The position numbers and the translations under genes were made by a program. From Eledone cirrhosa (lineage: Eukaryota): a stretch of DNA of 64,000 nucleotides. Numbering within the stretch: position 1 is the stretch's first letter; every line of letters begins with the position of its first letter. The notes under the pieces were generated by a model. That model ran no database searches. It saw nothing but the letters and a program-made list of their open reading frames with translations, and was not told the DNA's origin. Of this stretch, positions 1,580 to 62,403 are shown one piece after another. The stretch is taken from contig OZ024742.1 in the NCBI GenBank assembly GCA_964016885.1, positions 156,488,001 to 156,552,000 on the forward strand. Direction: 5' to 3'.

Positions 1580-1849
1580 TTAATTGATCAAAAGAACATA
1601 TATTTTATTAATATTTGTATTTTAATATTAATATCTCTCGAAAATATTTTTCAAGTAGAGTGCTTCCAATCTACTGTAAAACTCATTCTTATATATATAT
1701 ATATATATATATATATATATATATATATATATATTAATAAGAGGAATTCTAACTTTGTCTGATTTACTCGTTTTATTTACAATCCTTTAACATTTATAAT
1801 GGTATTATAATGAAATAGTATGATAGAATATTAAATTCTAAGTGTTAAT

Positions 1850-1888
1850 TGAACAAGTACTTTCATGCTTTCGCAATCTTCAGGTTCA
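1850..1888 (-). ncRNA. Minimal type I hammerhead ribozyme (family C), intact core
   Basis: Reverse complement: tgaac CTGAAGA t-tgc gaaa gca-t GAAA gtac TT gttca; stem I tgaac/gttca, GAAA-tetraloop stem II, palindromic gtac stem III. Confidence 0.8.
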
Positions 1889-1961
1889 TAATATGTGGTG
1901 ACAGTCAAGTTTGCAATTTTCAACAGTTGAAAATTGCAAACTTGACTATCACGACATATTA

Positions 1962-2000
1962 TGAACTTGAAGATTGCGAAAGCATGAAAGTACTTGTTCA
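1962..2000 (+). ncRNA. Hammerhead (family C), mirror copy with C3U core mutation
   Basis: tgaac TTGAAGA ttgcgaaagcat GAAA gtac TT gttca. Confidence 0.7.
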
Positions 2001-2151
2001 ATTAACACTTAGAATTTAATATTCTATCATACTATTTCATTATAATACCATTATAAATTATAACGGATTGTAAATAAAACGAGTAAATCAGACAAAGTTG
2101 GAATTCCTCTTATTAATATAATCTTCTATACACAATCATACACACCCGTGT

Positions 2152-2530
2152 ATCTCTCTCTCTCTCTCTCTCTCTCTCTCTCTCTCTATATATATATATA
2201 TATATATATATATATATATATATATATATATATATATATATATATATATATATATATATATATATATATATATATAAGAATGAGTTTTATATATATATGT
2301 ATATATACACATGTATATATATATATATAAATATATATATATGTATATATATGTATGTATATATATATATATATATATATATATATATATATATATATAT
2401 ATATGTATGTATATATATATATATATATATATATATATATATATATATATATATATATATATATATATATATATATATATATATATATATATATATATAT
2501 ATATATATATATATATATATATATATATAT
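2152..2530. repeat. (CT)n/(TA)n microsatellite block, one of many (TA)n, (CA)n and (TATG)n tracts across the window
   Basis: Directly visible; these tracts produce the IY/TH/CV-repeat ORFs in the track. Confidence 0.97.
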
Positions 2531-2568
2531 AATATATAAGATCAAAAGATGGTTAAAAGAGTTCCATG

Positions 2569-57539: not shown

Positions 57540-57547
57540 TTGTAAAG

Positions 57548-59340
57548 GACACTTCATACTATGAAAACGCCAAATTATACAACATGTTTAATGTGATGAA
57601 ACAATGCACTGATGTACTGCGCCCATTACAAAACTGTCTAACCGATTTGGATCTCACCTAGTTCAGAAGTAAAACAAGTAATATCTATGGATACTGAATT
57701 TGCACAATAATGAACTGATTGATGAAACAAGAAACATATGAAAACCGATTCTATAAAACCCGCTCAAGTTAACTGAAATCTAAGGCCGATCATAGCAAAC
57801 GCAATTTGTGATACACATCATCTAAGAAACTTCTATACATCGTGCTAGAACCACACCTCAAATACATCCGAAGCTTCATACGCGATGATCTAGATATATT
57901 CAACCGTCTACTAAATTAAATAACCTGAAGTACCTATATGGTTACATTAGTTAGCGTGAACTTCAATAGTAAGATGTCCCACTACTACAGAATCGTGCCA
58001 ATCAAATACTGCCTGGACTCATATTCCTATGCGCTAGCAAACCGCATTGGCAGATATGTCATCAATTTATTCAAAGTAAATAGCTACTTTATATTCAACC
58101 AAGATGCCTAGCAACAACATCCATATGATTACAATTTGTACCGTAACTAAGTCTTTGTAAATAATGGATTATACATCTAGAAACAAACTTTGCAGATTTA
58201 TCTGAATAACTTCAGACAACGAGAAAAGATACCTCGTTGAAATGTTCATACTGAGGAGGGGAAATCCTAAAGAGATAAATATATTCCAAACGCTCACTAA
58301 AGAACCCTAACATCCAATCTACTTCGGATATCAGCAACGAAAGGCTACTTTACACATACTACTGAAAATATAAAACAATAAGCTAGAGACTGATATATGT
58401 TCCAAACAGACCGACTCTCGAAAATATCTCTTTTTAGGTTTTCTTATCCAACACACACCCGCGCCAATATTCCACTTAACTTAAGCTAAGCAAATATGCA
58501 CACTAGTCTCAACTCAGGACAAAATACCAGAGACTAGAAGAGGTGAAACAAACATTCATAAGAAGAAAAATACCCGCAGAATCTAATCTATAATAGTATT
58601 CAAAAAGCAAAAATAAATTAATACCCAAGCACCCCCCCCCCAAAAAAAAAGGAAGGGAGACCATATATGACACTTGTCACAAATTTAAGAGTGGTGTTAT
58701 TTTATTTAAAGGTTTATGAGATGTGCATGAAATTACAATTTATTACTTTCAAAATAGGACCATGAGGAGTCACACCGTGGTTTCCACGTTTCTCCCTACA
58801 TTTACACATTGATAGTCAAAGAGCCAGTAATCTGCGCACACACATATCTAAAGCTATCTGTCCATTTAAAGAATTAAAAACCACTTACAAAAATACACAA
58901 TTATGAAAAGTAAATATGACAGCCTAAGTCACTGAAAACGTATTAACATATGTAAACTGTAAACGGGAAAGTTAGCACTTCAAGTGAAAAAATTCCAGCC
59001 ACTTATTAGAAGGGCAAGAATTCCATTTCAAAAGGATTCCATTTTAAAAACTAAAAATAACTTTTCATGCAATTCAGAGAATAGAATAGGTATTATAACA
59101 TGTAAGTGTTGCCTTGAAATCTACATTGGGCAAAGAGGATTAACACTCGAATTATGAATGACAGTTAACTGCGGTTTTCATCTCGATACAACAACATATA
59201 GAGGAACGTGGAAAGCACATTTTGCCGAGTGTCCATGTCTTCTCATTGTACAAATATTGACAGTCAATGTCAACAGAAAAGCGCATTGGCAAAGAAAAGT
59301 TATATTTAGTAAAATTTAGGCCAAAGCTGAACTCTTTGCA
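57548..59340 (+). pseudogene. Old PLE RT and GIY-YIG relic, continuing the fragment at 49380-49587
   Basis: DTSYYE, LRPIIA, SFIRDDLD, LETDICSKQTDSRKYL, TCKCCLEIYIGQ; U3-A8 HHR relic at ~59494-59530. Confidence 0.8.
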
Positions 59341-60549
59341 CTCACAACTTTTATACCTTCTCAGACCAGAAACACATCCCTAGTTAAGGATTGTGTTTTC
59401 TTCGACATGACGGGCAAAGGTAGAAACAGTTGCATCCCTATTTTAATAAACATAACTTTACAAATGTAAACTTACAACACTAGAGATGAAAACATATTTG
59501 AAAAATTGCTTAAGCGAAACCGGTCAATTTCAAAAGACATTCGGTTTGATGTGAATATGATTTTTTCGTTGTCTCCTATACACATAACATCAATTTATGA
59601 TACCTACACATTGGGTGTTCTTTTGTCAAATCTGTATTATTATTTTCCTATATAATCCGATTTGTAAAGAAATCATTAATCTTCGAACATTTTCATTTTT
59701 TTCTGTCTGTCTCTTTTTTCTCCATTCCCTGCCCTTTTCCTCCTCTCTCCGTCCCACTCTCCCCCTTTAAATATGTACACACACACACACACATACACAC
59801 ACACACACACACACACGCACACGCACGCACACACACACACACACACATATATATATATATATATATATATATATATATATATATATATATATATATATAT
59901 GTATGTATATATATATATATATATATATACGTAGAATGATATAACGCCACACGGTTCCTTTTGATAAACTACTTTGATTTATACATGCGTGACACTAGCT
60001 TATTCTTCATTCTATTAGTTGGTTCCTCACCACCTAGTTCTTTTGTTTATCGTTCGTTCTCTCATTCCAGCGTACACCGCCCATTCTCCCTTCACTTCTA
60101 CCACCCTTCCTTCTTTATTTCAAACCTTAGATTAAATAGAAAGTAGACAATCCTTGGGCAAAAGTCGACATTTTGTCGTTCATTATTTGTTGGCATATTT
60201 CTCCCATGTCTGTAAACAACAGAGTGATTCCTCAATTTGTTGCGAAAATGTACATATATATATATATATATATATATATCTTTATATATATATATATATA
60301 TATATATATATATATATATATATATATATATATATATATATATATATATATATATATATATATATATATATATATATATATATTAATATATATATATACA
60401 CACGCACATGTATATATATATATATATATATATATATATATATATATATATATATATATATACACATATCAATTAGTAATTTTTATTTTTTATTTTAAGC
60501 GTACATTGAAATTTATTCGTTAAAAACTTGTATTTTATATATGTGTCAC

Positions 60550-61150
60550 TCTCAAAGATTTATGCTTCGATGCACATGCTACAAATGCTATTATATTTTT
60601 TTGAAACGTCAAAGAGAACCCCTGCAAAATATCTGTTTGAAAATTTGGCTCCATTGGACATATGTCATTCTGTTGTTTGAAAAGTCGCTAGTCATTCCGT
60701 CAGATCTCCACTCTTTCGAATTTTTCCTCAACTTTCAATGAGTAGAATTTTAATAGAGCTTGCAATATGAATGAGTAAGTAGCTTGGCCATGCCTAGAGT
60801 GACCTAACCCCCTTTAAGTATACAGAAAGAGAGGCAGATAGACGATTGTCTGGGTAGTTGGAATCAACTCAATATAATGATTTGCTGATGATGGGCGATG
60901 TGCTTACTTTTTCCTTAACAGGCTTTGGTTACGTGTTAAGCATCGTTGAATATATATGTCTCGACGAAAATCGAAATCACTAGTTTGGGCCTATTTAACA
61001 CCCATCTATAATGAAAATCTGAATTGTAAGATATACCTGAATGAAACACCCTCATAAAAAACCACGCATTAGAAAATACTTTGTAGTGTAGAAATCCAGA
61101 TTCTGAAGTAGATTTCACTAGACGTTCTTTCCGTCGGTTAAGACAAACAT
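60550..61150 (+). pseudogene. Very decayed PLE RT relic
   Basis: YE*VSSLAM, FADDG and YRKP-like remnants in the expected order. Confidence 0.4.
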
Positions 61151-61850
61151 TTATATATGAGAGTTTCTAAAATATACATTGGTTATATCATGATTGTATT
61201 ATATTTATTTTTTATGTGCTTACTTCCTGTATTCCAAAAGTTTGAAATATATAATGGCAGTATATATTTTCCTGTATTAAAACGGTGTTTTGTGAATAAG
61301 TATATTTGTCATAGCCATTGTTTAAATATTGATTTTTACTTCAACAATATCTTATACTCCATCATCAATATATCGTACTATATATTTCCATACATTAAGA
61401 TATCATAAATTTTAATCGCCTTCAGCCGAGGGGGAACTGAAGTATGTTACAAATAAATCGAGACATACTTCTACTATATATTCATCCTATAGCAGAATTT
61501 GATTTTCAGCGAAGGAAATTCATCAACTCAGCAAAAAGTTTCCCAAAACTTGGAATCTTGTATCTTAAAAGACCTGATATGTGTATACTCACAAAACAAA
61601 GATACTAAATACAGAACACGATAAAGACATTTCAAAATATATGAATGTAAAAATACACACACACACACACATACACACATATATATATATGTTTCGGTTA
61701 TTTGTCGGAGATTTCTTCATAGAAGCCTCATTCTTATAGCCTGGTCTATTCGATTTTTTATATGGTTAATTATGCTAATTGGGAGAGGAAATAGTATATA
61801 TTTTATCTTGTGATTCTATAGACATGTTTTATGATATATATATATATATA

Positions 61851-62403
61851 TAAAAACAAATAACGAAACGAAATTAAATTTCGTTTCGTTTGTAACTCAC
61901 TTTTGTATGACTGACGCTTAAACAATTAAGTTAAAAATGTACATCCATATATGTATACTGAAATACTAGTATGCATATGAATACACACACGTATACATAT
62001 GTAGATGTACCAAGTCTTTCACTGGTTACTTTACTGTGAGTATCCAGCTATTCTGTATGTAAACACACAGACAAACCGGTTTTTAGATTCATACTGGTTT
62101 TTGAGGAAACACCTTTCCTCTATTCTCCAGAAAGCCAGACAAGGAATATTGAACTAGTTTCGTTGTTGTTACAACTCATCAGCAATATTTACCTATCTAC
62201 CGGCCTTTCTGGAGAATCGTAAAAACACATATCGTTATATGCTTTTTCTATGAAAATTAGTAGTGGGCAGACTAATTTGCATAGAGTGTGAGTACGTACC
62301 GGTTCAACGGAGACGATAAAAACAAATAACGAAACGAAATTAAATTTCGTTTCGTTTGTAACTCACGTGGTAACAACAACGAAACTAGTTCAATATTCCT
62401 TGT
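61851..62403 (-). mobile_element. Diverged family A copy (1.1 units) with a short terminal fold-back (62369-62403)
   Basis: Starts after (TA)n at the same nucleotide as 6351 (aaaaacaaataacgaaacg). Confidence 0.88.
62142..62194 (-). ncRNA. Intact hammerhead (family A variant) with compensatory stem II change
   Basis: Reverse complement aggtaaatattg CTGATGA gttgt aaca acaac GAAA ctag TT caatattcct. Confidence 0.9.

Follow-up and report, generated by a model that had tools for sequence, protein, structure and literature searches.

Why do the hammerhead-ribozyme repeats of an animal genome lie in inverted pairs whose 3′ ends point outward, in the layout of a Penelope-like element (PLE) beside them? 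The question is raised by a 64,000-nt stretch of the Eledone cirrhosa assembly GCA_964016885.1 (contig OZ024742.1, positions 156,488,001–156,552,000; hereafter the window, numbered from its first letter). A first-pass annotation had described eight such junctions, at 1925, ~2817, 7133, ~9041, ~19170, ~22035, ~39977 and ~62367, together with a PLE inverted at ~40690. It ascribed them to the PLE reverse transcriptase (RT) and GIY-YIG endonuclease, possibly priming from both strands of a cut (TA)n target. On balance we favour the reading that the pairs are insertions of PLEs and hammerhead repeats in which the cut (TA)n strands both prime complementary DNA (cDNA) on a single RNA, each strand from a different one of two fixed positions. 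The placing of one arm at each of two fixed sites is what we add; the layout, the one-sided tail and the TA targeting have been published before.

Head-to-head arms with outer ends in (TA)n

Repeats in the window were mapped by self-comparison and hammerheads with a purpose-written descriptor. For comparison we used the host assembly (3.0 Gb, an AT-rich animal genome), from which we took 190 loci found by DNA searches with window pieces, 20 longer stretches around matches, 100 evenly spaced 10-kb pieces (1 Mb) and 50 later loci for specific questions. Each locus search supplied its best 40 candidates, which biases this set to young, complete copies, and several queries were biased to anchors at the end site termed site 2 below. 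Five families were tallied: A, B, C and D, in which the descriptor finds minimal type I hammerheads with a palindromic stem III, and P, the PLE of the window. One row (L104; 79% identity), probably another element, was left out of the tallies.

As annotated, the left arm is antisense and the right arm sense at all eight junctions and in P; some hammerhead-family arms are without a core, and their orientation is taken from homology. Among junctions with a gap of at most 30 nt between the arms, 126 were head-to-head (127 before removal of L104) and 2 tail-to-tail, which is no random ratio. The split was 7:1 in the window, 105:1 at the searched loci and 14:0 in the evenly spaced megabase. The junctions at 9041 (gap 45) and 62367 and the exception at 23394 lie outside this tally. 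In the evenly spaced megabase the 52 arms of the five families formed 14 inverted pairs, compared with 1 pair in 134 copies of a control short interspersed element (SINE) and none in 31 copies of a control RTE element. Arms with an inverted partner 5′ of them numbered 35 of 38 in C, 57 of 72 in D, 47 of 81 in A, 31 of 61 in B and 33 of 78 in P. The control SINE is itself now and then found in tight inverted pairs (L173:2894-3172; L248:6469-6660).

Of 242 outer ends, 193 lay in (TA)n, where 7.9% would be expected from random positions, and 80 of 121 pairs had both ends there, so that the annotation's description of ends running mostly into (TA)n was a fair one. Five ends in the window depart from it. 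The left ends at ~8776 and ~21910 and the right end of the 40-nt arm at 62367-62406 lie outside (TA)n; a (CT)n run precedes (TA)n at the right end 2153; and the left end of P at 40432 passes through a short rearranged stretch before TA. Two short pieces, at 18893-18931 and ~23394-23447, are tail-to-tail across a TA spacer and had not been annotated.

Illumina reads from restriction site-associated DNA sequencing (RAD-seq) of three other samples contain opposite-strand joints of family B. One joint was present in 69, 79 and 88 reads with 2-3 start points; three of the four joints listed are necessarily head-to-head by geometry, and the fourth has no assigned geometry. In each run 190-230 reads leave family B at site 1 into TA. 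These joints support the pattern in family B and not the exact loci of the window: joints of this kind occur in independent reads for B, with none for C or for the window's own loci.

One arm at each of two fixed sites

Two sites at which 3′ ends fall could be defined for every family, spaced by 34 nt in A, 83 nt in B, ~70 nt in C, ~60 nt in D and 67 nt in P. Both sites end in TA-like letters in every family, site 1 is AT-rich in all five, and the stretch between site 1 and site 2 is the published PLE tail. Both ends were visible in 121 pairs and both lay at a site in 96. One arm was at each site in 92 of these 96, against 47.9 expected if the arms were independent (p = 4e-23), and in 11 of 11 pairs from the evenly spaced samples. 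Far ends predicted beforehand for eight long B insertions were correct in all seven scorable cases; the eighth stopped 14 nt before the predicted site, in unrelated sequence. Ends at site 1 ran directly into (TA)n in 101 of 104 cases. Single arms ended at site 2 in 75 cases and at site 1 in 22, the queries having favoured site 2.

In family B a similar small stem-forming motif can be seen by eye just beyond each site; the minimum-energy folds of the two differ. No such twin motifs were seen by eye in C, D or P. A likeness of D site 2 to P site 1, also noticed by eye, failed a shuffle test and was rejected. We found no coupling of two sites to two arms in the literature, supplements and subscription papers lying outside the search.

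Nesting, shared variants and pair centres

Folding back of one molecule makes one arm a subset of the other. The nesting count allowed shifts by whole units for C and D and left out P (no tandem shift applied), 30 pairs with a common start, 12 complex rows and 4 edge rows. Among the 61 informative pairs, 36 were nested and 25 were not, the 7133 pair of the window being one of the latter. The short arms at L343 and L346 include tail sequence for which the long arm has no match, and at L343 the short arm consists of tail only. Among the 15 untied pairs of A and B, the site-1 arm was the one with the longer 5′ reach in 9. Because so many pairs are not nested, two priming events are needed, and the term 'fold-back' used in the annotation is not supported.

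Partner arms nevertheless resemble each other, differing by 2.8% compared with 4.6% to arms elsewhere (n = 101, p = 1e-11). Of 683 rare variants, 111 were common to both partners, compared with 131 of 11497 for unpaired arms, a 14-fold excess that fits one template. The centres of the pairs look repaired. Inserts, several of them local duplications, were present in 57 of 119 joints, and 33 of the 62 insert-free joints had microhomology of at least 2 nt, against 19% expected.

Families A, B and P

Family A is the 3′ end of an autonomous PLE, with an RT/GIY-YIG frame upstream in sense at 8 of 60 loci. CCAAT, TATA and initiator-like motifs lie directly before the start of most of its arms, ~70 nt upstream of the ribozyme cut; since promoter-like motifs precede it so closely, this point is likely the transcription start. 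A 5′ pseudo-long terminal repeat (pLTR) of A was not found within 1.5 kb upstream of 30 RT copies. Family B shows a DKT motif, a CxCX5C linker, a canonical hammerhead and a (TA)n target; inspection by eye revealed no CCHH. By motif match to the definition in the part of PMC8557442 used here, it is the 3′ end of a Hydra-like PLE. Over 391 nt its RT copies share 98-100% identity, and there were 1754 first-look candidates; the family is young and possibly still active. Longer copies of A and B continue into PLE reading frames, and neither is a stand-alone non-coding tandem unit.

Genomic copies of P that align to window positions 42307-46908 matched the Pfam domains RVT_1 (31.2 bits; cut-off 29.6) and GIY-YIG (29.6 bits; cut-off 22.6). 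Eight short fragments of the broken frame in the window gave no Pfam match. P has the pLTRs, partial tandem, inverted 5′ copy and tail of an endonuclease-bearing PLE. Its linker is CX4CxxC, and translations of P and A contain the CX2-5CxxC linker ahead of the endonuclease and the CCHH motif that PMC8557442 gives for the Neptune clade; because Nematis also has a linker, we class both only as Neptune-like. The descriptor found no intact hammerhead core on either strand of P, where there is at most a degenerate relic. Since P obeys the polarity rule all the same, the rule does not need a ribozyme, and the annotation's framing of it as a rule of ribozyme repeats is not supported. In Rfam, Hammerhead_HH9 appeared only below threshold (30-39 bits vs 52), at four C cores. 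The many Rfam microRNA matches in the window were rejected, being produced by hairpins and microsatellites.

Retrozymes C and D

C (470-nt unit) and D (444-nt unit) are tandem, AT-rich and frame-less, have one type I hammerhead per unit and share common ancestry (307 identities, well beyond the level of 100 shuffles). No consistent coding flank was found in 30 loci of each. Judged by these features, they are non-coding tandem non-LTR retrozymes. The annotation had called all the repeat families non-coding; this applies to two of the four ribozyme families, because A and B are the 3′ ends of PLEs.

Arms of C and D start almost anywhere in the unit, and most of them (29 of 38 in C, 47 of 76 in D) continue across the ribozyme cut site. 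Divergence between units is as low within arms as across them (1.2% and 1.3% in C; 4.1% and 3.8% in D). As arms read through the cut and units are equally alike, the template was not a cleaved linear monomer; it was probably a circle or a homogeneous, uncut multimer. In multi-unit C loci with subfamily-level changes, both arms carry the changes. Sites 1 and 2 lie at homologous positions in the two families. C and D are each predicted to form a three-way junction that places site 2 in an unpaired linker; covariation for this fold is weak, D having a single compensatory pair, seen in 6 of 48 rows and probably due to one event, and C none. The presence of a PLE-like footprint on frame-less hammerhead arrays supports PLE-driven mobility of animal retrozymes.

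A seven-unit C arm at L247:3028-6486 carries a 38-nt deletion in two alternating units, which suggests a later two-unit duplication or a dimeric template. An octamer-like ATGCAAAT motif is also common to C and D and invariant in them (7133-7145, 9256-9266, 22484-22494); it lies ~85-100 nt upstream of the core, and it is an element which may mark a promoter and which we take to resemble the small nuclear RNA promoter element.

A probable mechanism with two primers on one RNA

Polarity, TA ends, two sites per family with one per arm, non-nesting, shared variants and repair-like centres are all directly supported. The steps that follow, from a dimeric complex to end joining, we infer. A dimeric RT/GIY-YIG complex would cut both strands of a (TA)n target, and each cut 3′ end would anneal to a short TA-like stretch at one of the two sites on the RNA. 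Both cDNAs would extend towards the RNA 5′ end, the trailing copy displacing the first, and the two cDNA ends would be joined by end-joining with microhomology or short templated inserts. Head-to-head polarity follows because an element 3′ end is attached to each end of the target. The template of C and D would probably be a circle or uncut multimer copied in trans by a PLE. To our knowledge PLE RTs have no RNase H, so that the RNA would still be whole when copied again. The annotation's suggestion that both strands of cut (TA)n act as primers is the best-fitting mechanism, and its broader proposal of a PLE insertion footprint is supported; the polarity itself was already in print (reported in parts of PMC3846280 and PMC8557442).

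A more general proposition, to which we give even chances, is that PLE integration is double-primed by default, through a dimer, one RNA and two structure-defined sites, and that C and D are circles bearing that two-site signal, in the form of the predicted three-way junction around site 2, and are rolled out from either end at once. If true, default double priming accounts for the inverted arm and the one-sided tail at once.

Several observations weigh against priming by both strands on one RNA. The sites were defined on the same data as the pairing count; 25 of the 121 pairs have an end elsewhere, and 4 of the 96 use site 2 twice (none use site 1 twice). Many copies are single arms, and a hidden tiny site-1 arm was found in only 3 of 73 site-2 singles. 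Gene conversion, or a single source locus that is active, could also produce the shared variants, and the most similar arm is usually found at another locus, the partner being closest or tied in 28 of 101 cases. Only 4 of 120 insertions were matched by paralogous empty sites, of which 2 were usable; both have TA, which is thin evidence. No significant alignment joined C or D to the three local pLTRs compared (P, A and B). Finally, the in vitro work reported in the part of PMC11167929 used here found that the two strands did not differ in where copying started and that the start sites lacked homology to the cut DNA.

The rival that survives best has both DNA ends priming on two separate RNAs held by an asymmetric dimer, one subunit per site. 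It covers polarity, site pairing and non-nesting without strand displacement, and partner arms do have only 16% of rare variants in common. The 14-fold excess in sharing and the multi-unit C loci with the same subfamily changes in both arms make it unlikely in our view, even though equal sharing would result if a single source locus dominated in each cell.

Next, and likewise improbable, is priming at one site only, the other end being made later by an endonuclease cut of a DNA intermediate at AT-rich element sequence. An available part of PMC8557442 ascribes the tail to endonuclease resolution of an intermediate, site 1 is AT-rich in all five families, and single arms mostly end at site 2 (75 vs 22). 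Against this, both sites serve as RT starts in vitro (PMC11167929, in the part used here), site-1 ends go straight into (TA)n in all but three cases, and the non-nested arms would still require a second cDNA.

Self-priming, in which one nucleic acid folds and is copied back (an antisense template in the portion of PMC3846280 used here), is very improbable. The 31 pairs with a shared 5′ start, some at short palindromes, and the 36 nested pairs would suit it, and it may cover the short exceptions at 18893, 23394 and 62367. As a general route it is largely refuted by the 25 non-nested pairs, the further 5′ reach of the site-1 arm in 9 of the 15 A and B pairs without a tie and the short arms of tail sequence without a match in the long arm, and it leaves the strict site pairing unaccounted for. 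Inverted chimeras are a known long-read artefact, and independent-read support concerns family B elsewhere rather than the window's exact loci, but a chimeric origin in sequencing or assembly has next to no chance given arms that differ by 2.8% on average, ends that are fixed and different, a SINE control almost without inverted pairs, and B joints and site-1/TA ends in Illumina reads of three other samples.

Elements of the window

Left arms lie on the minus strand and right arms on the plus strand. The family A pair comprises 1730-1924 (core 1883-1855), ending at site 1 in (TA)n, and 1926-2153, the 3′ end of the putative Neptune-like PLE, which ends at site 2 followed by (CT)n and (TA)n and has the first base of its core mutated. 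A single plus-strand A arm in TA (55752-55975; core from 55793) ends at site 2. The left arm of B (2524-2814; core 2631-2577) has an internal duplication and ends at site 1 in (TA)n, and the right arm (2822-3081; core 2891-2945), assigned to the 3′ end of the Hydra-like PLE, ends at site 2 in (TA)n.

Retrozyme C forms a left arm of 1.7 units at 6349-7133 (core 6679-6649, one change), ending at site 2 in (TA)n, and a right arm of 1.8 units at 7131-7967 (cores 7236-7266 and 7706-7736), ending at site 1 in (TA)n; the centre has a 3-nt microhomology and the arms are not nested. An older C left arm (61850-62366; core 62182-62152) ends at site 2 in (TA)n and faces the 40-nt right arm at 62367-62406, whose outer end is without TA.

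Four D pairs were mapped. The first, older in its left arm (~8776-9043), has a (CA)n expansion and an outer end not in (TA)n there, and a right arm (9043-~9690; core 9345-9375) that ends near site 1. In the second the left arm (18946-~19170) ends at site 2 in (TA)n and the right arm (19187-~19456) near site 1 in (TA)n; the exceptional 39-nt plus-strand piece at 18893-18931 precedes it across a 14-nt TA spacer. The third has a left arm at 21909-22035, ending near site 1 and not in (TA)n, and a right arm at 22035-23400 in which sequence of a younger D subfamily is combined with that of an older one (cores 22068, 22710, degenerate, and 23147). The other tail-to-tail piece (~23394-23447, minus strand), found by eye, lies across a TA spacer. 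In the fourth, a left arm of 1.5 units (39334-39979; core 39576-39546) ends at site 1 in (TA)n, and the right arm (39979-40373), which a TA run splits, reaches site 2 in (TA)n.

The inverted pLTR arm of P (40432-40688, minus strand) halts 27 nt before site 1. The Neptune-like element itself (~40690-48150, plus strand) consists of a 5′ pLTR, a broken RT and GIY-YIG frame and a 3′ pLTR that extends to site 2 in (TA)n. A DDE_1 DNA transposon, presumably Tigger-like, was later inserted into this frame (43573-46052, plus strand); it has terminal inverted repeats, TA flanks and an internal palindrome (43856-43964).

Other repeats were noted in passing. Family F (9688-10120) is an inverted pair without a recognisable hammerhead, and all three loci seen (the window, L145 and L260) are inverted pairs with the same lopsided ends. 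Family E (~1430-1690) has a degenerate hammerhead (1534-1572) and B-like end motifs, runs into (TA)n and forms inverted pairs at L199 and L259. Partial-tandem repeats at 25359-26138 and 5359-6222 end in (TA)n, with inverted pairs elsewhere (L148, L282), and are possibly further PLE ends. Pieces of another diverged PLE reading frame, with 31-38% identity to P, lie at 57494-59232. The element with 229-nt terminal inverted repeats at 52775-53892 is probably a DNA-type miniature element unrelated to the head-to-head arms. A broken long interspersed element on the minus strand (29208-31433), with an RVT_1 match and presumably of the RTE-type clade, served as a control.

Comparison with known systems

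In L1 twin priming, both target strands prime one RNA and the joined cDNAs give an inversion; the second primer is placed at variable internal sites, and the arms hardly overlap. In contrast, the sites here are fixed and adjacent, and the arms therefore overlap as a long palindrome.

The closest likeness is to endonuclease-bearing PLEs. The portions of PMC3846280 and PMC8557442 used here describe insertions with an inverted, 5′-truncated head-to-head copy, one tail, (TA)n and partial tandems, as we see. In the former, head-to-head is the most frequent arrangement, the tail is found on one of the inverted pLTRs and self-priming is proposed; the latter reports an inverted 5′ copy, a tail on one side only and, for Neptune, Naiad and Hydra, insertion into (TA)n, and describes the mechanism as undefined. 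Our pairs differ from these accounts in their 34-83 nt tails, in a near-obligate, measured one-sidedness and in the placing of the tail on either arm. Their arms are also often not nested, which is contrary to the self-priming idea of PMC3846280 and weighs against it. Neighbouring hammerheads on opposite strands were noted in PMC4209133, and PMC8969392 lists inverted pLTRs as a known peculiarity, in the parts of each used here.

For the Poseidon protein PAc, the part of PMC11167929 used here shows that in vitro both strands are cut and extended, that AT-rich DNA is preferred and that two RNA start sites bound the tail. Ribozyme cleavage was not needed, and the protein is a predicted dimer. That account, as far as the same part goes, did not tie the two sites to two strands or to inverted arms. 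Unlike in PAc, both sites here end in TA-like letters that match the target.

C and D resemble the metazoan non-LTR retrozymes of PMC7229834 and 10.64898/2026.07.22.740005, as described in parts of both, in being tandem, AT-rich and frame-less with one type I hammerhead per unit. Those sources link retrozymes to PLEs and propose PLE-driven mobility and circles. The main text of PMC7229834 never uses the word 'inverted', whereas C and D have an inverted partner on the 5′ side. The parts of 10.64898/2026.07.22.740005 used here describe no inverted arms, fixed ends or TA targeting, unlike what is seen for C and D. The footprint of C and D is thus evidence for PLE-driven retrozyme mobility of a kind other than sequence likeness. 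More broadly, the rule of one site per arm makes the inverted and tandem insertion of PLEs and their one-sided tail, unresolved according to the part of PMC8557442 used here, testable in an existing in vitro system.

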